A stretch of 64,000 nucleotides of DNA, from contig CANQRG010000003.1 of NCBI GenBank assembly GCA_947626165.1, positions 8,375 through 72,374 of the forward strand. Direction: 5' to 3'. The position numbers and the translations under genes are program-made. Source of the DNA: an uncultured Clostridia bacterium. GTDB lineage: Bacteria > Bacillota > Clostridia > Oscillospirales > Ruminococcaceae. The number at the start of each line of letters is the position of its first letter. The first letter of the stretch is position 1. Of this stretch, positions 5,719 through 60,172 are shown piece after piece. The notes under the pieces were generated by a model. It saw only the letters and a list, made by a program, of their open reading frames with translations. It was not told the DNA's origin and ran no database searches.

Positions 5719-5742
5719 AACGTATCTTCCTTTCTGCTAACA

Positions 5743-6033
5743 TTAGCAAACTGTAATTAAAAATCTCAGAACGCCGTCAGTAATCTTGAGTACACGTTCC
5801 AGCTCTGCCGGAAAGCTTGGCTTAGAAACAAAGTTCCAAAGAATGTAGTAGCCTTCATTTTCGAAATTGATAGGATAAGCAAGTCTTCTCTTGCCCCACT
5901 CATCAATAGAAACCTCCTCGGCATTAGCTGAAATCAGGTCACCGAACTTTTGCGTAAGAGCCTGAGTTTCTTCTTCGCTTAGCTTAGTGCTGAGTACAAC
6001 CATAGCTTCGTATTTTTCTGTAACCTTAGCCAT
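5743..6033 (-). CDS. rpsF: 30S ribosomal protein S6
   Basis: Start moved to the ATG at 6033, which has an AAGGAGGTG RBS. MAKVTEKYEAMVVL...WGKRRLAYPI is the S6 signature. Confidence 0.93.
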   Translation of the reverse strand: MAKVTEKYEAMVVLSTKLSEEETQALTQKFGDLISANAEEVSIDEWGKRRLAYPINFENEGYYILWNFVSKPSFPAELERVLKITDGVLRFLITVC

Positions 6034-6119
6034 AATAAATGCACCTCCTTTTAGATTTCGCCTGCGTTTTGACACAAGCAAGGATAACTAATGAATTATA
6101 ACATAAAATATTATATTTG

Positions 6120-9405: not shown

Positions 9406-9422
9406 ATTAATTTTTATATTAT

Positions 9423-9452
9423 ACAAGCGTTCGGAAAAATTCCGAACGCTTG
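9423..9452 (+). terminator. prfB terminator
   Basis: Hairpin acaagcgttcgg-aaaaatt-ccgaacgcttgt. Confidence 0.7.
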
Positions 9453-9577
9453 TATTACTTCTTGCAATTATCCATTATCAATTGTTTAGCCCGCCGTTTA
9501 TCAAGTTATAACATTTATCAAACTACCCAAAGGCGGCACTGGATGCAACGTCACCGTTGCCTTCGCTGGTCTTACCT
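9453..9577 (-). repeat. Inverted single unit of the intergenic repeat family
   Basis: The reverse complement contains gtaagacc...ggcaacggtgacgttgcatccagtgc (identical to 4666-4690), then a core variant, then caattgataatggataat. Confidence 0.75.
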
Positions 9578-10027
9578 CTATTCTCTAAAATACTTTTCAT
9601 CTAAATTCCTTGCGGCGAGCTCTACTAGCTCAACACAAGGTCTTTTTTTATAATAACTATCTGTTCTCAGCTCAGGAACAGGATTATCTACTCCCTTTTT
9701 AGACAGCCCCAAAAGCTCCCTGCATATTATTGAACCGTTCTGCTGTCTGAACTTCTCAGCAATTTCCTGAATATTTTTATAGTGCTCTGCTTTAGCTTTG
9801 TTATCCTTTGCATCATAACCGCCCTCTAACATTCCAAGCACCATAAATGAACCTGTCAATGCACCACAAACCTCTCTCATTCTACCCATTCCTCCGCCAA
9901 ATGACGAAGAAATTTTAAGTGCTGTATCTAAATTGAGTCCAAGCTCCTCGGCATAAGCGCCAAAAACCGCCTGAGAACAATTATATCCCCTTTTAAAAAG
10001 CTCTACAGCTTTTTTCGAGTGATCCAT
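9578..10027 (-). CDS. C_GCAxxG_C_C family redox-type protein
   Basis: YNCSQAVF...EVCGALTGSFMVLG...ICRELL...PCVELV matches the C-GCAxxG-C-C pattern. Confidence 0.8.
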   Translation of the reverse strand: MDHSKKAVELFKRGYNCSQAVFGAYAEELGLNLDTALKISSSFGGGMGRMREVCGALTGSFMVLGMLEGGYDAKDNKAKAEHYKNIQEIAEKFRQQNGSIICRELLGLSKKGVDNPVPELRTDSYYKKRPCVELVELAARNLDEKYFRE

Positions 10028-10171
10028 AAGTTATCCCCTTTCAAAAAATTTTGATATTATGTATTACAATATATTATATACTTTGAAAGCGGAAAAGTAA
10101 ACTTTGTTTTTTGCTAACAATTATAACTGTAACCAATACGCTTATTTAAGAGATTAATATAATTAGAAAAT

Positions 10172-10867
10172 CTACTTAGTTTTTTTCGATACATATTTTG
10201 AATAATCGCCTTCGACCTTTACTCCGTAATTGATTGTAATAGCTTTTACTCTCACATAATAATTAGATTTCTTTTTCAAGCCCTTTACTGTAACTGAATT
10301 TTTATCACTCGAAACAGTTTCGTAACTTACATTATTATTACCCTTTTTATTAGCAGAAACCTTTACCCTGTATTTAGTTGCACCGGGAATCTTCTTCCAA
10401 GTAATTTTAAAGCCTTTTTTCAGAGCATTTACCTTTGTAATTTTTACCCTTGATGGCTTAGTCATAGAAACTACCACTGGTTTTGCCGAGGTTGTTGAGG
10501 GCGGTGCAGCTGAAACCTGTGTAGTGGTTGTCTGACTTGTCATAACAGCATTTTTTGCCTCAAAGTTTTTTGTTTTATTTATATTACTGCTCGTTATAAC
10601 AAAGCATACTATAAGTACAACTGCTATAACTCCCCCACAAATACCGCAAATCATTCCCACCTTTTTTCCCTTTGGGTTTGGTTCACCGCTTTCGCCGAAT
10701 ACGAATTCATCATCATCCATATGAGAATCTTCATAGCTATCATTAAACTGATTTTCAACAGAGGATTTTAGTTCGCCGCCGCAATACGGACATACATCAT
10801 AGTCTTTATCCAACGGTCTTCTGCAATATTGACAAGACTTAACTGTTTTTTGATCTACATATCTCAT
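10172..10867 (-). CDS. Zinc-ribbon / single-TM protein with an extracellular Lys-rich Fn3-like module
   Basis: CQYCRRPL-x9-CPYCGG, TM segment VGMICGICGGVIAVVLIVCFVI, T/S-rich linker, then KITWKKIPGATKYRVKVS...YYVRVKAI. Confidence 0.8.
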   Translation of the reverse strand: MRYVDQKTVKSCQYCRRPLDKDYDVCPYCGGELKSSVENQFNDSYEDSHMDDDEFVFGESGEPNPKGKKVGMICGICGGVIAVVLIVCFVITSSNINKTKNFEAKNAVMTSQTTTTQVSAAPPSTTSAKPVVVSMTKPSRVKITKVNALKKGFKITWKKIPGATKYRVKVSANKKGNNNVSYETVSSDKNSVTVKGLKKKSNYYVRVKAITINYGVKVEGDYSKYVSKKTK

Positions 10868-10885
10868 TTTGTTTTTTCTCCTATC

Positions 10886-13309
10886 CTATTTTATAGTTTT
10901 GTAATTCAAATAAATACATTTTACATCCTTAAAGTTCTTTTCTTTCATACCTTTAAGTTCATATATTTCAATACGATAATCACCCTTTTTCTTTATTTGA
11001 TAAAACTTTTTAAATTTCTTTTTTCCATTACCCTTCATATAATCTTGCTTTACTTTTAGACTTATTTCTTTATTCTTTTTGTTGTATATTTTAATTCTAT
11101 ACTTACATCCGCCTCTTCTGGAAAATTTAATAATAATTTTTTTCTTTTTAATTTTAACTTTAGTTTTATTGCGAGAATTTATAATTTTTACTATCTTTTC
11201 ATTTTTTTTATTATTTTTACTAGTGTCTTTTGATGTTGTAACATTTGAACCGCTTTGTGTTAATACTTTTTGACCGCATAATTGGCAGATGCCATCATTT
11301 TTATATTTGTGTGCAGAAGGATTCTTATCAATTTCTTTAGTTTCTTCTTTATGACATAACTCACAAGTTCTTTTTTCTTCTCCTTTTTCATTGCATGTTG
11401 GTTCTTTTATTACCTCCCAATCGTCCCACTGGTGTGCAATAAAATTGTTATCAATTTCTTTAGTTTCTTCTTTATGACATAACTCACAAGTTCTTTTTTC
11501 TTCTCCTTTTTCATTGCATGTTGGTTTTTTTGTTACCTCCCAATCGTCCCACTGGTGTGCAATAGAATTGTTATCAATTTCTTTAGTTTCTTCTTTATGA
11601 CATAACTCACAAATTCTTTTTTCTTCTCCTTTTTCATTGCATGTTGGTTTTTTTGTTACTTCCCAATCGCCCCATCGGTGTGCATTCTCATCTAATGCAA
11701 CGATAATCTGATCCTTAACCTCTTCATATGTAGCAGGAGTTTCAAGTTCTACGCCGTTAATTGAAATTACTTTGTCGCAAACCTTACAATATACATATGC
11801 ATTTCTACCTGTTGCCTTACATGTAGGTGCAATTGCCTCATATGAAGTAGTTTCTTTATGACCTTCATGCTTTTCAGTAATTGGTTTTGAAAGTTCGTGA
11901 CAAACAGTACACTCAAGCTGATAGGTTCCGTCAGTTGTACAAGTTTTCTTTGTCCAGTTCTTTCTGTTAGCTTCTATATCATCAGCCCAATTATGTCCTA
12001 GAGCTTCTACTTCTCTGTACTCCTCTGCACCGCACTGAGAACACTCTATATATTGCCATCCATCTTTGGTACATGTTACAGGAGTATATTCTCCGCTCTT
12101 GTTAGAGTTTTTGTCAATTGCTTTCCAATCACTCCACTTATGACCTAATGCCTTAATAACGTCAGCCTTATCGATTTCATCTTGTCCCTCTGCATCACGG
12201 AAAAGTTTTTTGCAGTTTTTGCACTTCCATGAAACTGCTGTTCCTGTTTTTTCACATTCTGCAGGTGTACCTTCAACACGTTCAAGATTATGCTTGCATG
12301 TGAGTATATCACTCTTCTGAAGTGTTTCATCTAAACCAACTTCAGCTTCGCTTGATACTTCTACTGAGAAATTTTGAGTATTATTTGTATCAACTGGACT
12401 ACTTGAACCGCCGCTTGTACCTGGGTACATATTATTGACTTTACCACCTTTTATATTTACAGTTGCTTTGGTAATTGTTCCAGTAACAGTACTATCTTCT
12501 TTTTCTCCGCCTATGTAGAATTTTTCAATTGTACCGCCGCTTACATCAAATGCAGCAGAATCCATTGTACCTCTGTTAACAGACTGAACTTTTCCAATTG
12601 TTCCGCCGTTGATTTCTACAGTAGCTGCACCCGTATAACCGTTAGAGCCGCCTGCTCCTACAAATGTAATATTTCCGCCTTCAACGGTTACATTTGTTGT
12701 TCCGGTATAGCTAATACCCTCACCGCCGCCGAAAACAGTGTCAATGTTACATTCATTACCTTCAATTTTTACAGTTGCATTATCAACTTTGGTTGTAGCA
12801 TTAGCCGTATCACCTGAATACCATTGGCATTGATCTACAAGTCCTTTATAAGAAGATGCACCGCCTCCTTGTACAAAGTCGAGATCTGCATTGCCTTTAA
12901 CTGTTACTGTTGCAGTTTCAACATGTGACTTATGAAGTCCTCCGCCAAAGACACCATGTACTTTAACTCCATCAATTATAACTTCACTTGATTGTAAAGT
13001 TCCTTCCGTCTTATGACTTCCTCCGAATATAGTTACATTCTCAGGAATGTCGTTTCCGTCTTCACCAAGCTTTTTAGTTTGTCCCCCGAAGCTGTATTCT
13101 ACAACAACCTTGCCATCTTCGGTTTTAACCGTAATAGGCGTACCATTTGCGAATACACATGGTGATTTAGAAGAGCCAACTTCCTCAAATACTGGCTCTG
13201 TTGCCGAAGTATAATCTTCTGCAGAAACAAAGACCGTTGTCGATGGTATTGAACTTACCAACAGCGCAAAACAGCTTAAAATGCTTAAAGCCTTTCTTTT
13301 AATCTTCAA
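10886..13309 (-). CDS. Large secreted protein: Gly-rich beta-helix-like repeats, Cys-rich (CxxC) repeat array, C-terminal Lys-rich Fn3-like module
   Basis: Signal peptide MKIKRKALSILSCFALLVSS. Recurrent GG..(V/I).V.G units. Six or more modules of type H.W.DW...K.PTC...G...R.C..C. The C-terminus is strongly basic. Confidence 0.8.
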   Translation of the reverse strand: MKIKRKALSILSCFALLVSSIPSTTVFVSAEDYTSATEPVFEEVGSSKSPCVFANGTPITVKTEDGKVVVEYSFGGQTKKLGEDGNDIPENVTIFGGSHKTEGTLQSSEVIIDGVKVHGVFGGGLHKSHVETATVTVKGNADLDFVQGGGASSYKGLVDQCQWYSGDTANATTKVDNATVKIEGNECNIDTVFGGGEGISYTGTTNVTVEGGNITFVGAGGSNGYTGAATVEINGGTIGKVQSVNRGTMDSAAFDVSGGTIEKFYIGGEKEDSTVTGTITKATVNIKGGKVNNMYPGTSGGSSSPVDTNNTQNFSVEVSSEAEVGLDETLQKSDILTCKHNLERVEGTPAECEKTGTAVSWKCKNCKKLFRDAEGQDEIDKADVIKALGHKWSDWKAIDKNSNKSGEYTPVTCTKDGWQYIECSQCGAEEYREVEALGHNWADDIEANRKNWTKKTCTTDGTYQLECTVCHELSKPITEKHEGHKETTSYEAIAPTCKATGRNAYVYCKVCDKVISINGVELETPATYEEVKDQIIVALDENAHRWGDWEVTKKPTCNEKGEEKRICELCHKEETKEIDNNSIAHQWDDWEVTKKPTCNEKGEEKRTCELCHKEETKEIDNNFIAHQWDDWEVIKEPTCNEKGEEKRTCELCHKEETKEIDKNPSAHKYKNDGICQLCGQKVLTQSGSNVTTSKDTSKNNKKNEKIVKIINSRNKTKVKIKKKKIIIKFSRRGGCKYRIKIYNKKNKEISLKVKQDYMKGNGKKKFKKFYQIKKKGDYRIEIYELKGMKEKNFKDVKCIYLNYKTIK
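11326..11694 (-). repeat. Three near-identical in-frame 123-bp tandem repeats inside the 807-aa gene
   Basis: Unit starts at 11326, 11449 and 11572. Each encodes AHQWDDWEVTKKPTCNEKGEEKRTCELCHKEETKEIDNN.I (41 aa). Confidence 0.9.
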
Positions 13310-14661: not shown

Positions 14662-15267
14662 TTACTCCCAACCATTATCTTTCGATTTGTCATCGCTTGA
14701 TTTACGAGAAGTATTTTTTCTGCTATAATTCGCAGTTGGTGCTTGTGTAAATTGACTTCTAGTTTGTGTTGTTATGGGTATTTCAGTTACTGCTTTTGGC
14801 TCAGTTGCAATAGGCTTTGTTGTAGATTTTGCAGTTGTTGCTCTCTGCTTTTTCTCATTCAAATTGCTTTTATGAATATATCCTATTTTACCCTTGTATT
14901 TTACTTTCCAAATTTTTTTGTTATTTTTGTTAAGCACGATTACCTTTATAGGTTTTTTGCCATTTGGAGTAAACTCTTCTAAAACCCTACTGTTAGTATC
15001 TGCCTTTTCATACATTGCGACATACTCTTTTTCCGGATTATATTTTATGTAATAAGGTTCATTTAAAGTTATCTCCACTGTCGTTTGACGAGTCGTAGTA
15101 ACATTATTAACAATAGTAGTTGTGATCGTAGATGACTCACTTTCTACATAACTGTTATATTTTTCATCAATTTTATCAGCTATGCTTAAAGTTGTTTCTA
15201 ATCCGCTTTTACATCCTGTAAGTATTGCAATACAAACTATCATTGTTACACTTGCTAATCTTTTCAT
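14662..15267 (-). CDS. Lipoprotein with one SH3b-like domain
   Basis: Lipobox ILTGC. LNEPYYIKYNPEKEYVAMYEKAD...WKVKYKGKIGYIHKSNL. Paralogous to modules in 15281-16267 and 22322-23005. Confidence 0.8.
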   Translation of the reverse strand: MKRLASVTMIVCIAILTGCKSGLETTLSIADKIDEKYNSYVESESSTITTTIVNNVTTTRQTTVEITLNEPYYIKYNPEKEYVAMYEKADTNSRVLEEFTPNGKKPIKVIVLNKNNKKIWKVKYKGKIGYIHKSNLNEKKQRATTAKSTTKPIATEPKAVTEIPITTQTRSQFTQAPTANYSRKNTSRKSSDDKSKDNGWE

Positions 15268-15280: not shown

Positions 15281-16267
15281 TTACTCCAAACCGTAACCAT
15301 TATCTTTTGAATTATCATTATTTGTTTGTTTATCAATATTTTGCCCCGTTTGCGGTTTTACATATGTATTAGTATACGTTTGATAGGCTCTTGTGTTTTG
15401 CACAGTTGTTTCAGTAGTAGTGGTAGTTGTCGTTGTCATTGTAGTTGCCTTTTGCTTATCCCTAACTAAATTGTCTTTGTGAATATAGCCTGTCTTGCCT
15501 TTGTATTTAACCTCCCACAAATTAGCATCATCTTTGTTGAGTACAGTTACCTTTATTGCGGTTTTCCCATTAGGAGTAAGCCGATATTTAACTTTGCTAT
15601 CATTATTGGCTTCTCTATACATTTGAATTGATAGAATATGATTGTTCTCCAAATCATACTTTAACTTTATGTAATACGGTTCGTTTAGAGTAGTTTCTGT
15701 TGTTGTAGTTGTTGTTGAATATGTTGTTTGCATCTTTTTTGTTGTAGTTTCAGAGACTTCTGGCAAATATTTTTTCACATCTCGTTTTCTTACATATTTA
15801 TCTTTGAATTGCCCATCAATTATACGGAAATATTTGTTACCATTACTAAGTTCAGGAGTTTTGCTTATAATTAATTTATCACCGTCTTTCAATTGTTTAA
15901 ACTTTTCGTTTTTCTTAGTATATACCCACAGCTCTTCGCCTTTTGGTAACTTAACGATCATTTCATCTCCTCTTTGAATTGAATCGCTTATATTTTTACC
16001 AGTTGGTAAATTAGTTAAAAGTCTTGGAAAAGCTATTGCTCCGACTACAACCACTACCAAAACGAAACATATAGGCAGTATTACCGCAATTAAAGAACCT
16101 TTCCTCTTCTTTGACAGCGGCGGTATGTTAGGAATTCTGTCTAATTCCGTATAAAGAAGTTTTTCTATAAATTCAAAATCATTTTTATTTTCACCAATCG
16201 GATCTTCTCCGCATTTACAAAACTTTTTATTAAATTCAATACTTCTTCCGCAATTTTTGCAAAGCAT
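15281..16267 (-). CDS. Zinc-ribbon / single-TM protein with two SH3b-like domains
   Basis: MLCKNCGRSIEFNKKFCKCGE, TM segment LIAVILPICFVLVVVVVGAIAF, poly-Thr linkers, WEVKYKGKTGYIHKDNL. Confidence 0.8.
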   Translation of the reverse strand: MLCKNCGRSIEFNKKFCKCGEDPIGENKNDFEFIEKLLYTELDRIPNIPPLSKKRKGSLIAVILPICFVLVVVVVGAIAFPRLLTNLPTGKNISDSIQRGDEMIVKLPKGEELWVYTKKNEKFKQLKDGDKLIISKTPELSNGNKYFRIIDGQFKDKYVRKRDVKKYLPEVSETTTKKMQTTYSTTTTTTETTLNEPYYIKLKYDLENNHILSIQMYREANNDSKVKYRLTPNGKTAIKVTVLNKDDANLWEVKYKGKTGYIHKDNLVRDKQKATTMTTTTTTTTETTVQNTRAYQTYTNTYVKPQTGQNIDKQTNNDNSKDNGYGLE

Positions 16268-16294
16268 ATTTTTACTCCTTTATTTTATGAATTA

Positions 16295-17362
16295 TCACTT
16301 ATGCATTCCCATATTGATTTTTAAACCGCTGCTAACAGGCTTGTCCTTAATTTCTTTTTCAGGCGATTTTTTTATAGGCACAAATCTAGGTGTCGGAGAA
16401 TGAGAATTTATTTTTACTTTGGTCAAATCTTCAAATACTTCTTTAATTGAAATTCTTTGATCAGGATCTTTAACAAGCATTCTTTCTATAATTGATCTTA
16501 TATCATACGGGATACTATTATCTAAAATCGGAGGTTCATCATTCAATACCGATTCATAAACATAATGATAGTCCGATGATATTTCCGGAGTCTTCCCGCA
16601 CATATACTGATGAAAAATTATTCCCAATGCAAACACATCTATTTTTGTTGTAAGCTTTGCGTCTTTACCTATCATTCTCAAAAATGTTTCTGGAGCTAAA
16701 TATACAAAATCGCCTTTTATATCCTCAGAGCTTTTAGGCGGTTCACTTTCAAAATAGCTATCGCTTATATCTATTATCTTAGCTGTATATGTACCGCTAG
16801 CCGTCTTTTTTACTATTATGTTGTTCAATTTTAAATCTGCGTGAACTACTGACACATTGTTTAACCTTATCAAACAATGTGCAAGAACCTTTAATAGTAT
16901 GATTTTATTTTCTATCGGCAAGCCTGAAATTATATCTAAACTTATTCCCTCTTCTATCTTTTCTGTTACTTGGTAAAATTTGTTTCCGAATTTAAAAAAA
17001 TGTTTTACTACAACTATGTTTCCGTTTGATACGCTTGTTATAGCCTTAAATAGTCTTTGTCTATCATCATACCACTGTTTACATATCTCTTTTTGCTTGT
17101 TTTTTATGCTTTCCGATATCTCCGAACTGCTCGGAAATACCGGATATAAAAATTCCTTTATAAAATATTCTTTACCATTTTTATTGGCAAATCCCCATCG
17201 GGAAAAGCCTGAATTCTTTGTAGTAAATCCCTGCTCTACTACATATCCGTTTATTACTTCTCTTTTTCCGCTGAATATGCTGTCGTTTTTCTTTACCTTT
17301 TTGTTTTTAATTTTAGTTTCTGTCACCTTCTTTTCAGAAGTAGACGGTATATATACTGGCAT
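16295..17362 (-). CDS. Ser/Thr protein kinase, divergent (Hanks-type catalytic core)
   Basis: Catalytic loop VVHADLKLNNIIV, IIDISDS in the DFG position, YLAPE, DVFALGIIFHQ, and a putative VAIK-type Lys in EYFIKEF. No clear GxGxxG loop. Confidence 0.8.
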   Translation of the reverse strand: MPVYIPSTSEKKVTETKIKNKKVKKNDSIFSGKREVINGYVVEQGFTTKNSGFSRWGFANKNGKEYFIKEFLYPVFPSSSEISESIKNKQKEICKQWYDDRQRLFKAITSVSNGNIVVVKHFFKFGNKFYQVTEKIEEGISLDIISGLPIENKIILLKVLAHCLIRLNNVSVVHADLKLNNIIVKKTASGTYTAKIIDISDSYFESEPPKSSEDIKGDFVYLAPETFLRMIGKDAKLTTKIDVFALGIIFHQYMCGKTPEISSDYHYVYESVLNDEPPILDNSIPYDIRSIIERMLVKDPDQRISIKEVFEDLTKVKINSHSPTPRFVPIKKSPEKEIKDKPVSSGLKINMGMHK

Positions 17363-17384
17363 TTTTCAATTCACCTGATTTTCA

Positions 17385-18356
17385 TTAGTTACTATAATAA
17401 TTTGTCTTATATTTCTCCCACAGCTCGTATTTAATATCATCTGTGTATGCATCTTCCATAACGCTTATATAATGATCATAAATATACTTTTCTCTATCCA
17501 TAAAATACGATTTCATAGATTTGAACGAACCAAATCCTGTAGCTATAATTCCGAATGTAAAGTCGTCTGCTGTAAATGTATTTATATAATCTCTTATCTT
17601 TTCTTCAAATTCCATTATGTTTTCCGATGAACATATTGAATCCAAAATAACATATTCAAAATGCATAGGTGTAGGAAAATACCCAAAACAACCGTCTGTT
17701 GCAGAAATGAACAACGACGGTTTATTAACTTTTACCAATTTAAAATGAATATCAAAGTCCACACCTAAATTAATTACATTGCTCAGCGAGGCATCGCTTG
17801 AGATGTTACTCATTGCGTCCTGTTCTCCGTTTAAATCATCCTCTGTAACCTGTCTCAACCCGCTTGAATCCAATATGTAGCCTCTTGAATCTCCGACCCA
17901 CAAAAATTCGCTGTTGATATGACCGTTTTGACAACTTACTGATATTATTGAGGCAGTCGTGGGGAAGCTTTTACTTGCCAAGCTTCCCCTGAGCTCTGAA
18001 CCTCTATTAAGACATTTATTGTTTATTTCATCAAGTGCTTTGCAATATTCATATTTTAATTTTTTACAATCGCTTATATCAAAATCAAACGAACCGCTGT
18101 TTTCATAGTATTCCAATGTTTTATAGGCGCAGACCCTTGATGCAAGATAAGCGCCTGTATATGTTTCAGTGGTTTCAGCGTCGATTTTATATCTTTTTGC
18201 ACCAATTCCTCCGCAGCCGTCAAAAACGGCTATAAACGCATTATTGTTTTGACATTCTCTAGGATATGAGTAAGAAAAATAATCTTCTCCCATACCTTCT
18301 TTTTTTTCCTCACTGTAAACATCTACTATGTTAAAATATTCACTTAATTCGTACAC
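17385..18356 (-). CDS. PP2C-family Ser/Thr phosphatase
   Basis: GEDYF, IAVFDGCGGIGA, LWVGDSRGY, ISATDGCFGY and ADDFTF, in the order expected for PP2C metal-binding motifs. Confidence 0.85.
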   Translation of the reverse strand: MYELSEYFNIVDVYSEEKKEGMGEDYFSYSYPRECQNNNAFIAVFDGCGGIGAKRYKIDAETTETYTGAYLASRVCAYKTLEYYENSGSFDFDISDCKKLKYEYCKALDEINNKCLNRGSELRGSLASKSFPTTASIISVSCQNGHINSEFLWVGDSRGYILDSSGLRQVTEDDLNGEQDAMSNISSDASLSNVINLGVDFDIHFKLVKVNKPSLFISATDGCFGYFPTPMHFEYVILDSICSSENIMEFEEKIRDYINTFTADDFTFGIIATGFGSFKSMKSYFMDREKYIYDHYISVMEDAYTDDIKYELWEKYKTNYYSN

Positions 18357-18452
18357 AATAAATACCTCCGAATTTATTTACCGTTATATAACTGTTATTA
18401 AGTATGTTTTGATATAAGTAATTCAACTAATGATAAATAATTCAATTTAAAA

Positions 18453-19139
18453 TTATATGCTGTTTGCTATTGCGTCAATGATTGTAGAATAGTCGTAATC
18501 ATCTAATCCCTCTCCTGCCAGAGATGGAAAATGTATTACATTCTCCCAGTTATCTGATATTGTGTTCCAATAAGGCGCGTCCGGAGCAAAAAGCAGCAAT
18601 CTCTTTTCTGAAAAGCCTACATATCCATTAAGCTGTGCGTTTCCCCACCAGGAGGTAAGCTCATTGAAATCCTTTGCCATATTTTTAGGATAGTTCGGGG
18701 CTTCAGCGCCATAACCAAGATTATGAGTTGACGCATCCGTCCAAACTACAATAACCTGCCTTTTCTTTATTCCCTCAGTATCCCATGGCGAACGGATTGC
18801 ATAGCCGAGCGCTTCAAGACCATCTTCCGGCTCGTCTCCTCCTCCCTCTGGTACTATTGAATTTATGGTATTGCTGAATTCTTCAATTTGGTCAGGCAAT
18901 ACGAAAAAATCTGTTTCCATCATTGCATCATCGCCGTCGGCCAGATAATCTCTGAACGAAACAACTCTCACTCTAAGTTTATTTATTATTTTTGTCTCTG
19001 CTGCCATTGCAGCCATAACATCTTCAAAAAAGTGCAGAGCATTGTCCTTTACCATGTCTATAACAGGTACCATACTTGCCGTTGAATCAATGCACAATAC
19101 TAAATCAATATTATATGTAATTTGATAGTTCTCTGCCAT
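18453..19139 (-). CDS. Cytoplasmic von Willebrand factor A (vWA) domain protein, TerY-like
   Basis: MIDAS DxSxS in LVLCIDSTASM, later VVWTDAS, ~228 aa Rossmann-like alternation, no signal peptide. Confidence 0.8.
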   Translation of the reverse strand: MAENYQITYNIDLVLCIDSTASMVPVIDMVKDNALHFFEDVMAAMAAETKIINKLRVRVVSFRDYLADGDDAMMETDFFVLPDQIEEFSNTINSIVPEGGGDEPEDGLEALGYAIRSPWDTEGIKKRQVIVVWTDASTHNLGYGAEAPNYPKNMAKDFNELTSWWGNAQLNGYVGFSEKRLLLFAPDAPYWNTISDNWENVIHFPSLAGEGLDDYDYSTIIDAIANSI

Positions 19140-19219
19140 AATAATCCTCCTAGATATTTTTAGACTAAGATAAATCTAATAATTCTTTGATAAAAGCTGT
19201 ATAAATCGTAAAGCCTTTA

Positions 19220-20320
19220 TTAATCCAAATCCTTTGCTTTTTTAAAGCTTCCGGTGCTGCGTGAAGTTGTTCCAGCCGGATAACTTCTGTGTGGAGCTGC
19301 CGTAGCTTTTCCAGTTGGAGTATACCTGTGAGATCTGGTAGTATCCTTTATAACTCCGCTTCCCGAAACTGTCGTTGTTGTTCTCGAACTATAACCAACT
19401 TCCACAGGACGTTTCCACTCCCCGGACTTTGAATCTGAAACAGCACCAACAGGTGTTTTCATTGCTTCCTGTCTTAGCTTGAACAAAGAAATTGCAAATA
19501 GAATATACGCTGTGCACTCACAGCCTGCCGCTAATGCCAACGCCGGTGAAGGAACTAACATAAATAAAGCAGACAGTCCGGACAAACAACCGTATATATA
19601 CAGCATAACTCCGACAAAGGTCGGGATTTCTACAAGATTGTTATTATATTTGATGGAGTTTATAAGAGACATCAAAGTATTAATAACAAAGATTCCGAAT
19701 ATTAAATGAAGCACCAGATATCCAAGCACGAATAATGTTAATAATATCGTCGGTCCCTGAAATGCACTCGGGATATTCGGTATAAACATAATAGCGTAAA
19801 TTAATACCACTAAGACTAACAGCCCGTCAAGAACTGTTTTTATTATTTCAACAACTCTTATACCAATTAAAGCATTGATTTTTAATTCCGATTTTGAGAA
19901 CCTTGCATAAAAGCAATATATCATTCCAAATACGCAAATTATAATTGCAGGCAGATTTGAAATAAGAATCGCTGAAATTGAGTAATTTACGATACTTGAT
20001 AAAATTGCTTCTGATAGGTCGGATAAACCAAAAATCTCATTTGCCAATTCATTTTGAAAAATGCTCGTAGCTGAATTAACCATAAACATTACGCCAAGAA
20101 GCTGTAATAAAATATTTGCTGCATAAAATATCACAGCTGCTATTGAAACATTCGATCTTGCACAATTATTTATAGTGTCAATTAAAGGCGAATGTTTAAC
20201 ACTCTTACGAGCACTTCCGTCACCTTCCGATATAAAACTTTTAGGCCTTTCAAAACCGCACACTCTGCATCTCACCTCCTCCTCTCTATTTTTGGTTTCA
20301 CAATGATTGCATTTCCACAT
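19220..20320 (-). CDS. Zinc-ribbon protein with ~6-7 TM helices and a Ser/Thr/Arg-rich C-terminal tail
   Basis: MWKCNHCETKNREEEVRCRVCG, multiple long hydrophobic segments, tail SSRTTTTVSGSG...TTSRSTGS. Confidence 0.75.
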   Translation of the reverse strand: MWKCNHCETKNREEEVRCRVCGFERPKSFISEGDGSARKSVKHSPLIDTINNCARSNVSIAAVIFYAANILLQLLGVMFMVNSATSIFQNELANEIFGLSDLSEAILSSIVNYSISAILISNLPAIIICVFGMIYCFYARFSKSELKINALIGIRVVEIIKTVLDGLLVLVVLIYAIMFIPNIPSAFQGPTILLTLFVLGYLVLHLIFGIFVINTLMSLINSIKYNNNLVEIPTFVGVMLYIYGCLSGLSALFMLVPSPALALAAGCECTAYILFAISLFKLRQEAMKTPVGAVSDSKSGEWKRPVEVGYSSRTTTTVSGSGVIKDTTRSHRYTPTGKATAAPHRSYPAGTTSRSTGSFKKAKDLD

Positions 20321-20368: not shown

Positions 20369-22270
20369 TTAAACTTTTTTTAACCTAATTTTTTTTGTTG
20401 TCCACTTTCCGTAGTACATTATATTGCCAACTATTTTATAAGCCCTTACACCGATGGTATATTTTTGATTAAATTTAAGCTTATAAGTAAAAGACTTTTT
20501 ATTTATTAATTTTTTCTTTGCCTTTTTAAATTTTTTCGTCAGGGCAATTTTATACTGATACCCTGTTGCGCCTTTTACCTTTTTCCATTTAACCTTTATT
20601 TTGTTAGTTTTAGGATTAAATGTATATGTAATTTTGGGCTTTCCCGGCTTTGTAACCTTTTTAGTATTTACTATATTAACAGGTTTTGTTATTGTATTGA
20701 CCTTAATTATGTTTGGTATTGTTATAGGTGTGTTTGTTGGGATTGTAGGATTCTTTGAAACTGTATTAGATGACTTAGTTAACGGAGTTTTTATTGTAAA
20801 CTTAACTTCTATCTTATCTGTAGCACTAAAGTATGGAGATATGCCATCCAGAGCATTAGGACATGGTGGTAATGAGTACAAGTTTATCAAATTTATTCTT
20901 AAGTTTCCATTTGCTTCAAAATCGCCAAAATAAATATCAGAATCTTTATACTTATAAAATTCTTTTCCATCTGTTATAATTGAAAGATTTGTAACGCTTA
21001 ATCCCTTACTAACTGCTAATGCTCTTGTAGCATCAAAATCTTCTTTTTTGCCTTTCTCTACGCCTACAGTTGTATTAGCACCAAATGCCTTTGCCATTCC
21101 AAGCATATCTATATAAAGACAAGTAATTCCGCTAGGAACTTGATCTACCCAGTTTTTGAAATCACTAACATTAATACCCAATGTATATGTTCCGCCTATC
21201 TCAGCTATAGGACCGCCGTATGTTTTATCGTTACCACGAGCGTCAAATGATATTGCAGAGTCACAATAGCTAAGCTGTGCATTGTATGTTGTTCCGGAAT
21301 AGGTCTTTGAAGATGATTGTGATTGACCTGGCTTACCAGCCTCAGGAGGTGCTCCAAGCATTAACTTGATATTTGAACCACCAGCAATATAAGCATCAGC
21401 ACATTTATAAATTACTGCAGTATTTATTGTAATACCATCATAAATATGAGGAAGTGTGTTTCCATAATCACTGTCTGATGCAATTTCTAAACCAACATCA
21501 AAAGTGTATGTATCATTTACTACGATTGAATTAACTTTAATTGTTATAGGATTTGGAGATGCCTCAATTACTCCAAGACCAGATAGAGAAATTAGAGGAG
21601 TAGAGAATTGTCTTTCAAGCTTAAAATCACCGCTTGTTCCAACTTCTAAACCAATAGACCTATTTGTTCCTTCAGGATCGCCAAAAGTAACTATTGTATC
21701 ACCACCTGATACTATTGTACAGTTATAATCAATAGACTCAAATGCCCCAGGCTGAGCAGGCGGATTTGGATGATCATAAACTGAAATCTTTGTAATAGCG
21801 CCTGAAGCATCAAGAGCAGATAATAAGAATGATGCAGACTCTCCTCTGTAATCCTCAGGAATAAGAACAGGTTCTCCAGACTTACCTATGCCAAAGTTAA
21901 CATCAGGAACAGTTCCACCTTTTCCATCATCTTTCTCTGTGTAAACTTGGAATGTACCGCCGTCACTGATCTCAACTTCAATAGATGGGTTTTTCATACC
22001 GGTCAAATCAATTTCTGAGATTTTAAGTTGCCAACCACTACCCCAATTTTCGACTAGCATACCACCTTTAGATGTTCCCTTATCAATTAGACCAGTCTGG
22101 TCTGAACCGGCTGGATCTTTGCCATCAACTCTTACCCATTTACCAGACCATTGAATAAATGCATTATCCGCCAATTCAGAAGCTGATGCGTATGTAAATG
22201 ATGCAATAGCAACAGATGACAATGCCATAATTGCTGCTGTCACACCTGATAGAAGTCTTTTTAACTTCAT
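20369..22270 (-). CDS. Secreted protein (633 aa) of unknown fold with a C-terminal Lys-rich Fn3-like module
   Basis: Signal peptide MKLKRLLSGVTAAIMALSSVAIA. The internal segment YNAQLSYCDS...GGTYTLGINV resembles the N-terminus of 25272-26105. The C-terminus is VKWKKVKGATGYQYKIA...YTIGVRAYK. Confidence 0.8.
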   Translation of the reverse strand: MKLKRLLSGVTAAIMALSSVAIASFTYASASELADNAFIQWSGKWVRVDGKDPAGSDQTGLIDKGTSKGGMLVENWGSGWQLKISEIDLTGMKNPSIEVEISDGGTFQVYTEKDDGKGGTVPDVNFGIGKSGEPVLIPEDYRGESASFLLSALDASGAITKISVYDHPNPPAQPGAFESIDYNCTIVSGGDTIVTFGDPEGTNRSIGLEVGTSGDFKLERQFSTPLISLSGLGVIEASPNPITIKVNSIVVNDTYTFDVGLEIASDSDYGNTLPHIYDGITINTAVIYKCADAYIAGGSNIKLMLGAPPEAGKPGQSQSSSKTYSGTTYNAQLSYCDSAISFDARGNDKTYGGPIAEIGGTYTLGINVSDFKNWVDQVPSGITCLYIDMLGMAKAFGANTTVGVEKGKKEDFDATRALAVSKGLSVTNLSIITDGKEFYKYKDSDIYFGDFEANGNLRINLINLYSLPPCPNALDGISPYFSATDKIEVKFTIKTPLTKSSNTVSKNPTIPTNTPITIPNIIKVNTITKPVNIVNTKKVTKPGKPKITYTFNPKTNKIKVKWKKVKGATGYQYKIALTKKFKKAKKKLINKKSFTYKLKFNQKYTIGVRAYKIVGNIMYYGKWTTKKIRLKKV

Positions 22271-22321: not shown

Positions 22322-23005
22322 TTAATATTCCTCAATAATCACCATTTCTGTTTTCTTCTTTGTTTGCGGTTTTACATATGTATTAGTATACGTTTGATAG
22401 GCTCTTGTGTTTTGCACAGTTGTTTCAGGCTGTTTTGTGGTTGTAGTTGTTGCTTTAGTCGCTTTCTGCTTGTCTTTAACCAAATTGTCCTTATGAACAT
22501 AGCCTGTCTTGCCTTTGTATTTAACCTTCCATAAACTATTATCATCTTTGCTTATCAATGTTACTTTTATTGCCTTTTTACCGTTAGGACTAAACCGTGT
22601 TATAACTTCACTGTCTGTATTGGGTTCTCTATACATTGCAACATATTCTTTTTCTGAATTATATTTTATGTAATACGGTTCGTTCAAAATAATTTCAATT
22701 GTTGTATTTTGCGTCGTTGTTGTTGTGTTTGTGCTAACTGCATTACCAGTTGTGCTGTCCGGTTTGGGTGTTTCTGTGTGTCTGTAAGTAAAAACTGTCG
22801 CTAAACAAATAGCTCCGGTAATTAGTGCTGTTACCAAAATAATTATTACGATTATTAAAGGTCTCGTACTTTTTACAGATTCGCTTTTTATATCAGCTGT
22901 ATCGGTTTCAATAATAGCTTCATCTCCATCAAATGCATTATCACATACCGGACAAACACTTACATTATCTTCTACTTCAGTTTCACAAATTTTACATATC
23001 TTCAT
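22322..23005 (-). CDS. Zinc-ribbon / single-TM protein with an SH3b-like domain
   Basis: MKICKICETEVEDNVSVCPVCDN, TM segment LIIVIIILVTALITGAICLATVF, poly-Thr, LNEPYYIKYNSEKEYVAMY...WKVKYKGKTGYVHKDNL. Confidence 0.8.
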   Translation of the reverse strand: MKICKICETEVEDNVSVCPVCDNAFDGDEAIIETDTADIKSESVKSTRPLIIVIIILVTALITGAICLATVFTYRHTETPKPDSTTGNAVSTNTTTTTQNTTIEIILNEPYYIKYNSEKEYVAMYREPNTDSEVITRFSPNGKKAIKVTLISKDDNSLWKVKYKGKTGYVHKDNLVKDKQKATKATTTTTKQPETTVQNTRAYQTYTNTYVKPQTKKKTEMVIIEEY

Positions 23006-23027: not shown

Positions 23028-24149
23028 TTATATTGAAAGACTCAATATCTTACTGTACTTTCCGAATATCTTTTTACCTTTTTTCTTTTTATAAGCCCTT
23101 ACTTTAATGTAATACTTATTGCTGTAAAGATTTTTTAATGCGACCCGCTTCTTCTTGGTAAATTTTTTGATTGAATAGAAAAAGCTTTTATTTGTAGCTA
23201 CTTTTACTTGATAGCCCTTAGCGCCTTTGACCTTCTTCCACGAAATACGTGCTGTCCTTCTTCCAATTTTTGTTATTTTCAATCCCTTGACTTTTGCAGG
23301 CTTTTTAACGGAAGACTTCTTCTTTGAAGTCGACTTTTTTGATTTGCTTGACGATGACGACTTCTTAGATGTACTCTGCGGATTGAATTTTAGTACGTAT
23401 TTGCAGTCGCTGTAATCCCTGCTTATTCTTACATAATATGTACCCTTATTTAAGACGCTTGTAACTTTTAATGTCTCATTTGAATAGCTTGTATCGTCCC
23501 AGCCAATATCTATTTTATTTAAGTTGTTGTCATACAATGTAAAATCTGTACTGCTATCATAAGACGTTAGGTAGAAACTGTATACAGTCATTTTGCTTAC
23601 ATTAATTTTATAGTAATCATACTCATCATATTTTAGTTTTGTTATCGTACCGGTAATTGTTGAACCGTTGCTTACAGATTGAGCTTGTAAATATGTATCG
23701 TTAGGCTCTATTTCATTTGAACCTGCAGATGCAAAGCTGGCTTTTACTCTGTAGCTTGCTTGCGTGTCCGACCAATAATCTTCTGATACTCTAACATAAT
23801 AAGTACCTTTTTCCAACCAGCTTGTAAACGTACCATTTTTAGGATCGCCGCCGCTGCCATATAAGCCGTAATCATCTATAGTATTGTAATCACTATCTAA
23901 TATTTCAAAATATAAATCCCCGAAAGATTGCATATCAATAGTTAATTTTCCTGTTGCTGTAGTATATATAGGATGATAGTCATATTCATTTATATCTTCA
24001 TAATATCCTACATAGCCATCTCTCCAAACACCATTAGTCGCAAGCGCCGAGTAGTCATTTCTAATATCATCTGCACCTGCCGGCACAACACCAAGCAATC
24101 CCACAAGCATAATCAATGTTAAAATTATACTGAATATTTTTCTCTTCAT
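23028..24149 (-). CDS. Secreted protein with two PPC (pre-peptidase C-terminal)-like domains and a C-terminal Lys-rich Fn3-like module
   Basis: Signal peptide. EIEPNDTYLQAQSV..GSTITGTI...DYYKINV is a PPC-like pattern and GTYYVR occurs twice. S/K linker, then ISWKKVKGAKGYQVKVA...YYIKVRAYK. Confidence 0.75.
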   Translation of the reverse strand: MKRKIFSIILTLIMLVGLLGVVPAGADDIRNDYSALATNGVWRDGYVGYYEDINEYDYHPIYTTATGKLTIDMQSFGDLYFEILDSDYNTIDDYGLYGSGGDPKNGTFTSWLEKGTYYVRVSEDYWSDTQASYRVKASFASAGSNEIEPNDTYLQAQSVSNGSTITGTITKLKYDEYDYYKINVSKMTVYSFYLTSYDSSTDFTLYDNNLNKIDIGWDDTSYSNETLKVTSVLNKGTYYVRISRDYSDCKYVLKFNPQSTSKKSSSSSKSKKSTSKKKSSVKKPAKVKGLKITKIGRRTARISWKKVKGAKGYQVKVATNKSFFYSIKKFTKKKRVALKNLYSNKYYIKVRAYKKKKGKKIFGKYSKILSLSI

Positions 24150-24236: not shown

Positions 24237-24266
24237 ATTATAATGTAATTTGATATTTATTGTCAA
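24237..24266 (-). promoter_or_regulatory. Near-consensus sigma-A promoter for the 12-gene minus-strand cluster
   Basis: The minus strand reads TTGACA, 18 bp spacer, TATAAT, about 90 nt upstream of the start at 24149. Confidence 0.6.
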
Positions 24267-25271: not shown

Positions 25272-26105
25272 ATGAAACTTAAAAGAATTTTTGCAGGAGT
25301 AGCTGCTGCTGCATTGGCAGCTTCAACTTGTGCAAGCTTTTCAGCTTCTGCAGCTGAAAGTTACAACGCTTTTTTGATGTTTGGAGATCATAACTGGTTA
25401 TGGAAAAGTATGAATGCTCAAGCAGGTGTTGGAACAGGAGCTTCAGAAGTTGCTGCTTACGGTGTTGACGCACAGGTTACAAAGGATGGTACATATACAG
25501 TTTCCATCACAAGCGATTCTGTTGACAAGAACGCTGAAGGCGACAACCCACAAGGAAAAGGCGGAACTGATGCGGCTACAGGTGCAGTTGTATTCTGTGT
25601 TGATATCACAGGTATTTTAAAATGTAAAGACTTCAATGCTAAAGATGAGTTGAAAAATGGTGTTACAAAACCAGGTCCATACTCAGAAGATGATATCAAG
25701 TGTAAATTAAAGAGCATCAAACAAGACGGTAAAGAGTTAAAATTTGATGCAAGCAAAATTATTTATGGAAACATTGAGGATCAGAACTCCAACTACAGAA
25801 TTGAGATTTATAACACATACGGTAAAACAAAGGATAATCCTCCTATTGACACATCTCAAATCGTTTGGTCAAAGAGCTTAGACGTTACTTTTGAGATTTC
25901 AGGTCTTAAGGGCGACGGCACAGAAAAAGCTGCTAAGACAAATGATTCTGCTGCAACCACACAGGCTGCTGCAGTAGGCGGCGGAGCAGATACTACTGCT
26001 TCTAATACAACATCAAATACAAATACCGGTGCAGAGACAGGTCTTGCTCTTATAGGTCTTGCTCTTGCAGGCGGTGCAATCGTTCTCACAAAGAAGAGAA
26101 AGTAA
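25272..26105 (+). CDS. Secreted or cell-surface protein with a C-terminal TM plus basic tail but no LPXTG
   Basis: Signal peptide MKLKRIFAGVAAAALAAS. The C-terminus is NTGAETGLALIGLALAGGAIVLTKKRK. Confidence 0.8.
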   Translation: MKLKRIFAGVAAAALAASTCASFSASAAESYNAFLMFGDHNWLWKSMNAQAGVGTGASEVAAYGVDAQVTKDGTYTVSITSDSVDKNAEGDNPQGKGGTDAATGAVVFCVDITGILKCKDFNAKDELKNGVTKPGPYSEDDIKCKLKSIKQDGKELKFDASKIIYGNIEDQNSNYRIEIYNTYGKTKDNPPIDTSQIVWSKSLDVTFEISGLKGDGTEKAAKTNDSAATTQAAAVGGGADTTASNTTSNTNTGAETGLALIGLALAGGAIVLTKKRK

Positions 26106-26165
26106 TAAAATTGCATAATACGCATAAGAAATAAAAAGGATCTCGAAAGAGGTCCTTTTACTTTT

Positions 26166-26447
26166 AGAAGCAAGACCAGCGTGACGCTGGTTGCCCTGCT
26201 GCCTTTGGACAGTTTGCAAAATGTGTTCACTTTGTGCAACGGCAGACTAGTACCTAGAAACAAGAAGCAAGAGGCAAGAAGCAAGACCAGCGTGACGCTG
26301 GCTGCCCTGCTGCCTTTGGGCAGTTTGCAGTATGTGTTCACTTTATACAACGGCAGGCTAGTATCAAAAAACAAAAAACAAGAAGCAAGAGGCAAGACCA
26401 CCGAGTCGGTGGTGTCCATTGTCAATTTTCAATTATCAATTTTTATA
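26166..26447 (+). repeat. Two tandem units (~111 nt period) plus a third partial unit of the intergenic repeat family
   Basis: agaagcaagaccagcgtgacgctgg(t/c)tgccctgctgcctttgg.cagtttgca..atgtgttcacttt...caacggcag.ctagta occurs twice (ctgctgcct at 26196 and 26307). It ends with gaccaccgagtcggtggt and ttgtcaattttcaattatcaat. Confidence 0.85.
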
Positions 26448-26460
26448 AAATAAATCTTGT

Positions 26461-26495: not shown

Positions 26496-26837
26496 GCGAG
26501 TAAGCTATGCGGTAGCTGGACGGCGTTACGTTCAGAGGAAAGTCCGAGCATCACAGAGCAGGATAGCTGCTAACGGCAGCCGAGGGCGACCTTAGGGCTA
26601 GTGCAACAGAAATATACCGCCTTTTATGAGGTAAGGTTGGAATGGTGAGGTAAGAGCTCACCGGAATGCGGGAGACCGCATTGCCATGTAAACCCTATCC
26701 GATGCAACTCCAATGGTAAGTACAAAGTCAATGGCTGCTCGTCAGGCTTTGGCTTATAGGGGGCTTGAGCCTTATGGTGACATAAGGTCTAGATAGATTA
26801 CCGTACACGACAAAACTCGGCTTATCGGCTTAGTCGC
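26496..26837 (+). ncRNA. rnpB: RNase P RNA (bacterial)
   Basis: Universal elements are present: GAGGAAAGTCCG, CAACAGAAA, AGATAGAT and ACAAAACTCGGCTTA. P1 pairs gcgagtaagc with gcttagtcgc. Confidence 0.93.
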
Positions 26838-26850
26838 ATAAATAAAATGT

Positions 26851-60095: not shown

Positions 60096-60172
<77 letters not shown>

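Follow-up and report, generated by a model that had tools for sequence, protein, structure and literature searches.

A conserved cassette of vWA, PP2C, Ser/Thr kinase and zinc-finger or zinc-ribbon proteins in gut Clostridia, with a candidate acidic-tail recognition mechanism

The DNA considered here is a stretch of 64,000 nucleotides from an uncultured Clostridia bacterium of the family Ruminococcaceae (contig CANQRG010000003.1, positions 8,375 to 72,374), referred to throughout as the window, and the subject is a run of five consecutive minus-strand genes at its positions 15281-20320. All five open reading frames (ORFs) that the original prediction had drawn in this run are present. Three of them form a triad, encoding a stand-alone von Willebrand factor A (vWA) protein, a PP2C-family phosphatase and a Hanks-type Ser/Thr kinase, and comparison with related loci has established a real, conserved four-part cassette in gut Clostridia that consists of the vWA, the PP2C, the kinase and zinc-finger or zinc-ribbon proteins. 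The last of these components are mostly membrane-anchored, and both their sequences and their ectodomains are highly variable. It is proposed here, with a confidence that falls a little short of even, that the cassette would act on the cytoplasmic side of the membrane as a four-part module whose assembly is controlled by phosphorylation, and in which the MIDAS (metal ion-dependent adhesion site) of the vWA would read acidic tails carried by its partners. To our knowledge, kinase/PP2C pairs linked to stand-alone vWA proteins have been recognized through comparative genomics for more than ten years, yet no mechanism for the vWA has been put to the test; the proposal offers a concrete hypothesis, namely that the vWA would read a defined C-terminal peptide of 8 residues in a MIDAS-dependent way. 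The genes and motifs on which the argument depends are as follows.

19220-20320, minus strand: gene of the zinc-finger/6TM protein, with a RanBP2-type finger at amino acids (aa) 1-26, six transmembrane (TM) segments at about aa 57-288 and a tail at aa 292-366
19223-19246, minus strand: C-terminal tail motif FKKAKDLD of the zinc-finger/6TM protein, scored with a position-specific scoring matrix (PSSM) of kinase tails
18453-19139, minus strand: stand-alone cytoplasmic vWA protein of 228 aa, integrin βI-like (Pfam VWA_4, AlphaFold2 (AF2) model and fold matches)
19074-19088, minus strand: MIDAS motif D18-S-T20-A-S22 of the vWA, with D, T and S invariant in alignments
17385-18356, minus strand: PP2C-family Ser/Thr phosphatase of 323 aa with a GTG start and a complete metal-binding Asp set
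16295-17362, minus strand: Hanks-type Ser/Thr kinase of 355 aa with a divergent N-lobe (Pkinase, 76 bits) and the C-terminus GLKINMGMHK
15281-16267, minus strand: protein with a degenerate zinc ribbon, a single TM segment and one SH3b-like module in its extracellular region, paralogous to the products of 22322-23005 and 14662-15267

The distribution of the cassette was studied by scanning one genome per GTDB species for the vWA pattern. Of 185,579 species 283 matched, a number that is a lower bound, and 80 loci were returned and kept, across which the vWA is 57-73% identical. ORFs were called and clustered in 88 related loci (these 80 included) alongside the window, giving 89 sequences, among which the kinase was recovered in 77, the PP2C in 73 and the vWA in 72; these locus counts are lower bounds, because in 16 of the 88 related loci greedy overlap filtering made the ORF caller miss the vWA. 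Beyond these, the 89 sequences have no gene family widely in common. The hosts are Oscillospiraceae/Ruminococcus, Lachnospiraceae (Blautia, Acetatifactor and Marvinbryantia), Christensenellaceae and other gut or rumen Clostridia, and a locus from a rabbit-gut metagenome-assembled genome is 96% identical to the window (L009). The family is a common one in these habitats: it numbers at least 283 species and, at 50% identity, 564 clusters, and it has a cultured carrier in Blautia caecimuris DSM 29492 (L049). Two gene orders are found, vWA-PP2C-kinase as in the window and PP2C-kinase-vWA in Lachnospiraceae, along with a small clade that has vWA and kinase without PP2C.

The fourth component emerged from the genes surrounding the triad. 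Neighbours were scored in 66 loci against a background of 433 genes lying five or more positions away, and zinc-ribbon genes proved syntenic with the triad: such a gene lies within ±3 genes in 55 of the 66 loci, whereas among the 433 distant genes there are 12 (about 3%). Proteins that combine an N-terminal Cys4 zinc ribbon with TM segments account for 28-42% of the genes at positions ±1 and ±2, compared with 1.8% at five or more genes, and 52 of the 66 loci have a zinc-ribbon/TM gene within two genes of the triad. The enrichment holds both for RanBP2-type fingers (W-x-C-x2-C-x3-N-x6-C-x2-C; 34/66 loci within ±3 genes and 1/433 distant genes) and for plain zinc ribbons (46/66 loci and 11/433 distant genes), and the RanBP2 family PF00641 is matched by the window protein and by 20 of 30 triad-linked fingers. 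Some zinc-ribbon genes sit between the PP2C and kinase genes. Indeed, zinc-ribbon/TM proteins make up most of the neighbour clusters in the 88 related loci, yet they are highly diverse, falling into dozens of clusters whose non-finger parts mostly have no Pfam match. The adjacency of the triad to zinc-ribbon membrane proteins, first noticed in the window by itself, is therefore not fortuitous, as the triad and its zinc-ribbon neighbours recur across dozens of distantly related genomes. The cassette could explain the role of many functionally opaque zinc-ribbon membrane proteins in Firmicutes.

Two groups of loci carry additional genes. In Lachnospiraceae loci L004 and L024 (about 8800-12100) the vWA gene is directly followed by genes for two FHA membrane proteins, one of which also has an LRR region, and an 8-TM protein encoded upstream ends in FFYRDDDLA; the sequences suggest that the Lachnospiraceae version adds phosphothreonine readers. 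In Oscillospiraceae SIG667 (L001/L019, about 1-6600) four co-directional genes lie upstream of a zinc ribbon-vWA-PP2C-kinase set, encoding a TraG/TrwB-type coupling ATPase (431 aa), a 902-aa protein, a zinc-ribbon/3TM protein (346 aa) and an 811-aa protein, and genes of 910 and 470 aa are found nearby in L006 and L030. A link between the L001/L019 cassette and a secretion or transfer ATPase is possible.

The vWA is the most conserved member of the triad. Its match to Pfam VWA_4 (PF25106) scores 35.8 bits against a cutoff of 27, and an NCBIfam scan of all five proteins gave no vWA match. The prediction of a 228-aa vWA protein with an intact MIDAS and no signal peptide stands, with the correction that the motif reads DxTxS (D18-x-T20-x-S22 in CIDSTASM) and not the literal DxSxS. 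A search of a 5.8-billion-protein set found 1190 homologues, and the 120 listed are 60-99% identical and almost all about 228 aa long. The MIDAS residues D, T and S are invariant in the aligned homologues, as are the βI-type loops, the sole exception in both cases being a degenerate second vWA copy in L086. The AF2 model is a single domain with a pLDDT (predicted local distance difference test) score of 90.1, and when it was compared with the Protein Data Bank (PDB) using Foldseek the top 50 matches were all integrin β chains (best E 7e-8). At the sequence level the family profile matches integrin β8 marginally (E 0.015), in an alignment that pairs GGGD-x-PE-x-G..AL with GNID-x-PEGG..AM and VVWTDASTH with LVMTDQTSH. 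The modelled fold, the D-x-P-E motif of the SyMBS/MIDAS Glu loop and the TD-x-x-TH motif mark the vWA as integrin βI-like. Measured against the window proteins, median identity is 61% for the vWA, compared with 41% for the kinase and 37% for the PP2C, and conservation so far above that of its partners would suit a hub whose ligand is a short conserved motif. Natural fusions were surveyed in the 564 vWA-family clusters (E <= 1e-30), which include fusions to a retropepsin-like aspartyl protease, to a SMEK_N domain and to a PknB-like kinase (P0153, P0157 and P0170), several further fusions of 350 to 1549 aa whose N-terminal regions have no Pfam match, and one protein, P0173, in which the vWA family is joined to the kinase family of the window. 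Natural kinase-vWA fusions, P0173 among them, are counted as support for the vWA as a hub.

The two enzymes that accompany the vWA hold up as a candidate writer and eraser of phosphates. The window PP2C by itself falls below the Pfam threshold (14.9 compared with 20.3 bits), and it is at the level of the family that the assignment is borne out: 16 of 27 homologues match PF13672 PP2C_2 (best E 4e-9), and the family profile matches the solved bacterial PP2Cs PstP, tPphA, PppA and Stp1 at E about 5e-4. The motifs E24-D25, D46-G-x-G-G, G-D156-S-R, D221-G and D264-D265 are invariant, and with its complete metal-binding Asp set the PP2C is, as far as its residues tell, catalytically intact. The kinase is of the Hanks type, as had been thought (Pkinase, 76 bits), and its invariant residues are K69, H174-x-D176-x-K178, D198 and E225, with N181 nearly invariant. 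The sequence 'DIS' (D198) occupies the DFG position, for which the family consensus is DFD, and the kinase is probably active. For the window protein Pfam finds the kinase domain and nothing else. A CxxC...CxxC motif is absent from all 77 kinases, none of which has a C-terminal zinc ribbon or OB fold; their C-termini are instead short linear tails.

These tails, the clue that says most about a mechanism, are a feature that the kinase has in common with its zinc-binding neighbours. Most kinases end in [WF]-F-[KS]-x-A-[GD]-D-L, and the family consensus that includes the neighbours is [WF]F-x-x-A-[GD]-D-L-COOH; of 54 anchored tails, 44 contain the Asp, and in half the Leu is the very last residue. 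Besides the kinase, the tail is carried by the product of the gene just upstream of the vWA, by proteins encoded between PP2C and kinase and by small soluble zinc-ribbon proteins. A strict form of the pattern is found in 33/64 kinases, 14/64 genes at position -1 and 13/18 inserts inside the triad, compared with 1/433 distant genes, and a PSSM trained on the kinase tails alone places 44 of 369 near genes above its threshold compared with 4 of 433 far genes. Two loci encode a whole set of such proteins: L043 has four AGDL-ending proteins and L047 seven, kinase included, most of them with the ending ...FK[PS]AGDL (in L047 six end exactly in AGDL and one in ...AGDLQ). Where the tail departs from the consensus, tails within a locus can still match, as in L042 (FFKSVNKL and FFRQVTKL) and in L048 and L062, where both proteins have ADDFD. 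Membrane proteins that bear the tail have even TM counts, and the other carriers are soluble; the even counts place the tails in the cytoplasm.

In the window the tail is found on the zinc-finger/6TM protein, whose chain ends in ...STGSFKKAKDLD (tail motif FKKAKDLD). It is the only strong PSSM scorer in the 64 kb, with a score of 10.1 against a threshold of 0.45, which one other ORF exceeds, at 0.9. The protein starts with MWKCNHCETKN...CRVCG, and the finger formed by this region is of the RanBP2 type (PF00641, E 1.3e-5; E 2.5e-7 for the isolated finger). Its AF2 model has six long helices (overall pLDDT 65) and a tail with pLDDT of about 30, and from the model this Ser/Thr/Arg-rich tail of about 75 residues appears disordered and cytoplasmic. 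The zinc finger and the Ser/Thr/Arg-rich tail are therefore as originally described, and of the six or seven TM helices then envisaged the model has six. A homologue search yields only 7 relatives, which keep MWKC.HCET.N..C..CG, an internal WKRP.DL and the terminal FKKA.DLD. They also share LKG-x-MG, which the end of the window kinase, GLKINMGMHK, resembles. The PDB fold search found no relative of the protein (best E 0.4), leaving the membrane domain unclassified.

In the proposed module the vWA would be the hub, its MIDAS metal binding the invariant Asp of the tail and possibly the free carboxylate too. Binding of the tails would either tether the kinase and the membrane proteins to the vWA or set them in competition for it, and the assembly would be switched by the kinase and PP2C, which would add phosphates to the Ser/Thr-rich tails or to the vWA itself and take them off again. 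The disordered segment that precedes the tail has a Ser/Thr fraction of 0.16, compared with 0.10 in the kinase domain, and this Ser/Thr-rich segment would be a natural substrate of the kinase and PP2C, its phosphorylation tuning the binding. The zinc fingers would probably provide a second, weaker docking contact, as the ArnA finger does on ArnB, whilst the variable membrane and extracellular parts would supply the input (SH3b in the window). With inputs as variable as these, the cassette would be a modular transmembrane signalling device and not a Ter-type stress system.

Several observations weigh against this proposal. The window kinase itself has no acidic tail, GLKINMGMHK being a clade-specific variant, and scoring finds no clear tail in about a quarter of kinases and in roughly half of the loci. 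Non-acidic tails exist (VNKL in L042 and AKKL in L015) despite an unchanged MIDAS; as the MIDAS is invariant whatever the type of tail, there is no simple covariation between the two. The mutual information between vWA columns and tail class has its top columns scattered over the whole protein, and phylogenetic confounding makes this covariation uninformative. The tail could dock on the kinase or the PP2C instead. The canonical MIDAS Thr position of the vWA reads GGGD, and the Asp pair of the integrin site adjacent to the MIDAS (ADMIDAS) appears not to be kept in the vWA, so that the integrin analogy may be only partial: the corresponding region of the window protein is SMVPVID, and the Asp at position 28 is D, N or E among homologues. 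Finally, related triads are found on plasmids and beside integrases, in keeping with a mobile or defence role.

A stronger form of the proposal, that the cassette is a cytoplasmic integrin-like recognition system in which a βI-type vWA reads ...A-G-D-L-COOH through its MIDAS under the gating of kinase and PP2C, is possible but doubtful. In this form the system would extend across gut Clostridia and relatives in Chloroflexi and Cyanobacteria, with one conserved hub serving a set of fast-evolving zinc-finger receptors. The analogy is drawn from two sides. Integrin βI domains are the closest solved fold throughout the top 50 Foldseek matches, and D-x-[ST]-x-S-M, D-x-P-E-x-G...A-[LIM] and T-D-x-x-[ST]-H are common to them and the vWA. 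The candidate ligand is a chain-terminal A-G-D-hydrophobic-COOH, as in the fibrinogen γ chain, whose AGDV-COOH binds almost wholly to the β3 βI domain of integrin αIIbβ3, with the Asp coordinating the MIDAS and the carboxylate reaching the ADMIDAS through a water (PMC4813479). In contrast to integrins, the vWA is bacterial, cytoplasmic and stand-alone, with neither an α subunit nor a hybrid domain; the ADMIDAS Asp pair appears not to be conserved, and the similarity in sequence is marginal. Were the stronger form to hold, the cassette would represent a new class of bacterial transmembrane signalling and provide a prokaryotic case of βI-domain/acidic-tail recognition, and a βI-like vWA paired with an AGD-hydrophobic-COOH candidate ligand would bear on the origin of integrin-type recognition. 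No description of the Clostridial cassette, of its βI-like vWA or of the common tail was found in a literature search of incomplete coverage.

The earlier statement that this arrangement has no described precedent was too strong. In Sulfolobus acidocaldarius the vWA protein ArnB is bound by ArnA through a RanBP2-type finger, and the resulting complex is switched through ArnC-mediated phosphorylation; this ArnA/ArnB/ArnC-D switch has been studied experimentally (PMC6509490, PMC12852372), and related actinobacterial sets have been noted (PMC7159879). The archaeal ArnA/ArnB/kinase switch is the closest studied analogue in logic, and differs in every domain fusion. Both systems combine a RanBP2-type finger protein, a cytoplasmic MIDAS-bearing vWA, one or more Hanks kinases and a phosphatase, and when the profile of the triad-linked fingers was compared with the PDB, ArnA (5a8i) was among the best matches (E 6.6e-5). 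However, ArnA is a soluble protein with an FHA domain, whereas the finger here is fused to six TM segments or belongs to single-pass membrane proteins, and FHA proteins occur only in the Lachnospiraceae variant (L004/L024). ArnB has a β-sandwich and a helical bundle that hold the finger site and the phosphosites, in contrast to the bare 228-aa vWA. The Arn phosphatase is PP2A and the one here PP2C, and the AGDL-type tail is not reported for the Arn system.

Two bacterial arrangements are also comparable. In the actinobacterial GAP1-N2 GTPase systems a kinase (with zinc ribbon/TM), a PP2C and a stand-alone vWA occur together (Kaur et al. 2020, PMC7159879), and the authors propose that interactions between vWA and peptides regulate the assembly of complexes (PMC7159879). 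The cassette described here differs in having no DO-GTPase or GAP1 genes, in being Clostridial and in having its zinc ribbons on separate proteins. In the type VI secretion system (T6SS) of Pseudomonas a Hanks kinase, a PP2C and a vWA at the membrane (PpkA/PppA/Fha1) switch the assembly of a machine. In the PpkA pathway the kinase carries the vWA as its own periplasmic domain, an FHA protein serves as reader and the output is the T6SS, whereas secretion genes are absent from this window.

The same components could be wired differently. It is conceivable, though in our judgement unlikely, that the tail docks on the kinase, in the manner of AGC kinases, or on the PP2C, thereby recruiting substrates, and that the vWA is the main phospho-substrate; that the phosphorylation state of the vWA would control the binding of the zinc fingers, as in ArnA/ArnB, is a continuation of this wiring to which we attach similarly low weight. 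In AGC kinases a hydrophobic motif docks in the PIF-pocket, and the tail is here similarly found on the kinase itself and on its partners. The triad-linked fingers are ArnA-like, the FHA membrane proteins encoded right after the vWA in Lachnospiraceae imply the reading of phosphothreonine, and the existence of non-acidic tails beside an unchanged MIDAS is more easily accommodated by this wiring. In the archaeal system, moreover, contact between the ArnA finger and ArnB is direct, and ArnC rewires the complex by phosphorylation (PMC12852372). However, the ArnA finger contacts the β-sandwich and helical domains of ArnB, both of which the 228-aa vWA lacks, and an invariant tail Asp followed by the chain end is a classic signature of a MIDAS ligand. 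The N-lobe of the kinase is less conserved than the vWA, and the linker of the fusion P0173 has no recognisable tail motif.

The triad was originally likened to TerY-P, and from this likeness a further explanation follows: the cassette would be a TerY-P-type anti-phage or conflict system, in which the triad is a sensor-switch and the zinc-ribbon multi-TM proteins are membrane-damaging effectors of abortive infection. We consider this improbable, to about the same degree as the alternative wiring. The TerY-P triad was defined by Anantharaman, Iyer and Aravind 2012, according to PMC11090510 and PMC4978471, and, in the former, TerY-P kinases are defined by a C-terminal zinc ribbon or OB fold (OB in the antiphage version). 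PMC11090510 (citing Gao 2020) also lists the three-domain triad as a stand-alone defence system. As architecture the comparison is sound: in both, a stand-alone cytoplasmic vWA, a PP2C and a Hanks Ser/Thr kinase are encoded side by side, the system includes a zinc ribbon, a metal- and phosphorylation-dependent switch is proposed and some lineages show mobility. Membership of TerY-P is not demonstrated, as the tests applied reveal no TerY-like vWA, the kinase has neither ribbon nor OB fold, and partners of the Ter or DNA-processing kind are absent. The zinc ribbon here is on separate, mostly membrane proteins, with fusion to the kinase in 0 of 77 and no OB fold; the window vWA has no detectable similarity to TerY of ter plasmids and no PADLOC match; no Ter, McrBC/CoCoNuT, nuclease or type VII secretion system-like genes are nearby; and neither the AGDL-type tail nor the βI-like vWA was found described for TerY-P. 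With three of four features failing, membership is not demonstrable, although a remote kinship of the vWA is conceivable.

The case for a defence role draws further on mobility and spread. When the vWA was compared by tblastn with 72,556 plasmids, a set that ought to contain ter plasmids, two matches were found at E <= 0.01, both non-Ter, in a search that included no bona fide TerY-P vWA as positive control; with phages included, the search returned two plasmid triads and one unverified 'phage' contig. The plasmid triads are on Herpetosiphon pHAU01 (L089, Haur_5138-5140) and a Calothrix plasmid (L090); their vWA-family proteins are 43-45% identical and accompanied by a kinase, a PP2C-sized gene is present or absent, and resolvase and transposase genes are near. 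The Herpetosiphon kinase has the ending ...SRMDL, and the annotation of pHAU01 lists an 'integrin alpha beta-propeller repeat protein' at a distance of 3.5 kb. The third relative (L091, MT836186.1, 'UNVERIFIED Bacteriophage sp.', 12 kb) is a gut contig with the order PP2C-kinase-vWA and 56% identity; its kinase ends in FKQAGSLF, and two tyrosine integrases, a MazF/PemK-like toxin and XRE regulators adjoin the triad, so that it looks like an integrative element or the edge of an island and not a phage. A spread over at least 283 of 185,579 species is patchy given 57-73% identity across 80 loci, the neighbour proteins diversify fast and have several paralogues, some relatives have vWA fusions to an aspartyl protease or SMEK_N, and the best PADLOC matches of the kinase are the defence kinases mad6 and PD-T4-6.

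These points are offset by others. The five proteins were checked against PADLOC-DB v2, and the conflict-system association gained nothing from it: only the kinase matches (mad6, PD-T4-6 and MkoA), and these are generic Hanks-domain matches, whereas the vWA and PP2C have no match at E <= 0.1 and both flanking proteins are likewise without one. As PADLOC and NCBIfam gave only generic kinase matches, no defence-system call is made. The kinase has neither of the TerY-P fusions, the vWA has no similarity to TerY on ter plasmids, and its conservation is unusually high for a defence gene. When 30 window proteins were scanned with Pfam, genes of the nuclease, restriction, Ter or mobile-element kind were not found, upholding the reported absence of TerD, TerZ and TerB genes, and the context is one of housekeeping and surface-protein genes (RF2, SSB, RNase P RNA, YmdB, a two-component system and surface proteins). 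The phage-related cue that had been suggested finds no support in this chromosomal setting.

The least credible explanation, that the triad just happens to be located where genes for zinc-ribbon surface proteins are plentiful, draws on the abundance of zinc-ribbon/TM proteins in Clostridia and on others in the window (7103-8104 and 10172-10867), but is effectively refuted by the enrichment at positions ±1 to ±2 over genes five or more away, seen in 66 loci from several families, by the insertion of zinc-ribbon genes between PP2C and kinase and by the tail motif that the neighbours share with the kinase.

On its downstream side the triad is flanked by the product of 15281-16267, which was described as a zinc ribbon with one TM segment and two SH3b domains. 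The TM segment is present, the ribbon is degenerate (CxxC...CxC), and only the second SH3b has a Pfam match, at E 0.002-0.007 and below threshold, the first having none. Two further genes of the window encode related proteins.

22322-23005, minus strand: zinc ribbon, TM and SH3b protein of 227 aa (SH3_3 29.1 bits, above cutoff; N-terminal CxxC..CxxC)
14662-15267, minus strand: lipoprotein-like SH3b protein of 201 aa, a paralogue of the SH3b of both zinc-ribbon proteins (cluster c41)

The SH3b modules of the three share a near-identical stretch, LNEPYYIKYN..KEYVAMY...WKVKYKGK.GY.HK.NL, and the extracellular C-terminal ends of 14662-15267 and 15281-16267 are similar (...SKDNGWE and ...SKDNGYGLE), which points to recent duplication around the triad. 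Together with proteins that carry a Lys-rich fn3-like C-terminal module (...KVKGATGYQ.K.A..KKF..), the SH3b proteins form a 14-kb block of surface-protein genes surrounding the triad. The module is present in at least four secreted or surface proteins (7-1941, 10172-10867, 20369-22270, 23028-24149 and the C-terminus of 10886-13309) and may be a common cell-wall or anchoring domain. The secreted protein of 10886-13309 (minus strand, 807 aa) has no Pfam match, is rich in Cys pairs of the CxxC type and contains three tandem repeats that are nearly identical, HQWDDWEV.K.PTCNEKGEEKR.CELCHKEETKEIDNN. A further zinc-binding membrane protein is encoded 7 kb from the triad (7103-8104, minus strand), in which Prok-RING_1 (91.7 bits) is combined with a DUF2628 membrane region and a zinc ribbon; no link to the triad is obvious.

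A scan of 9.5-24.5 kb for promoters and terminators yielded no more of them than shuffled sequences did, and so does not define the limits of the operon. A perfect sigma-70 consensus, TTGACA-18-TATAAT (12/12), is found at 24237-24266 (minus strand) upstream of 23028-24149, the first gene of the minus-strand block that holds the triad, and no convincing terminator was found between this site and the triad. RNase P RNA of the bacterial class A type is encoded at 26497-26840 (plus strand, 259.6 bits), which identifies the window as chromosomal housekeeping DNA. Just upstream of it, at about 25856-26453, long ORFs on both strands have duplicated peptide stretches, which points to a direct repeat of about 100 nt in the DNA. 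A tRNA-Met (CAT) is found at 60096-60172 (minus strand), overlapped by a weak and probably spurious Rfam match to the Staphylococcus small RNA S774 (51 compared with 48 bits).

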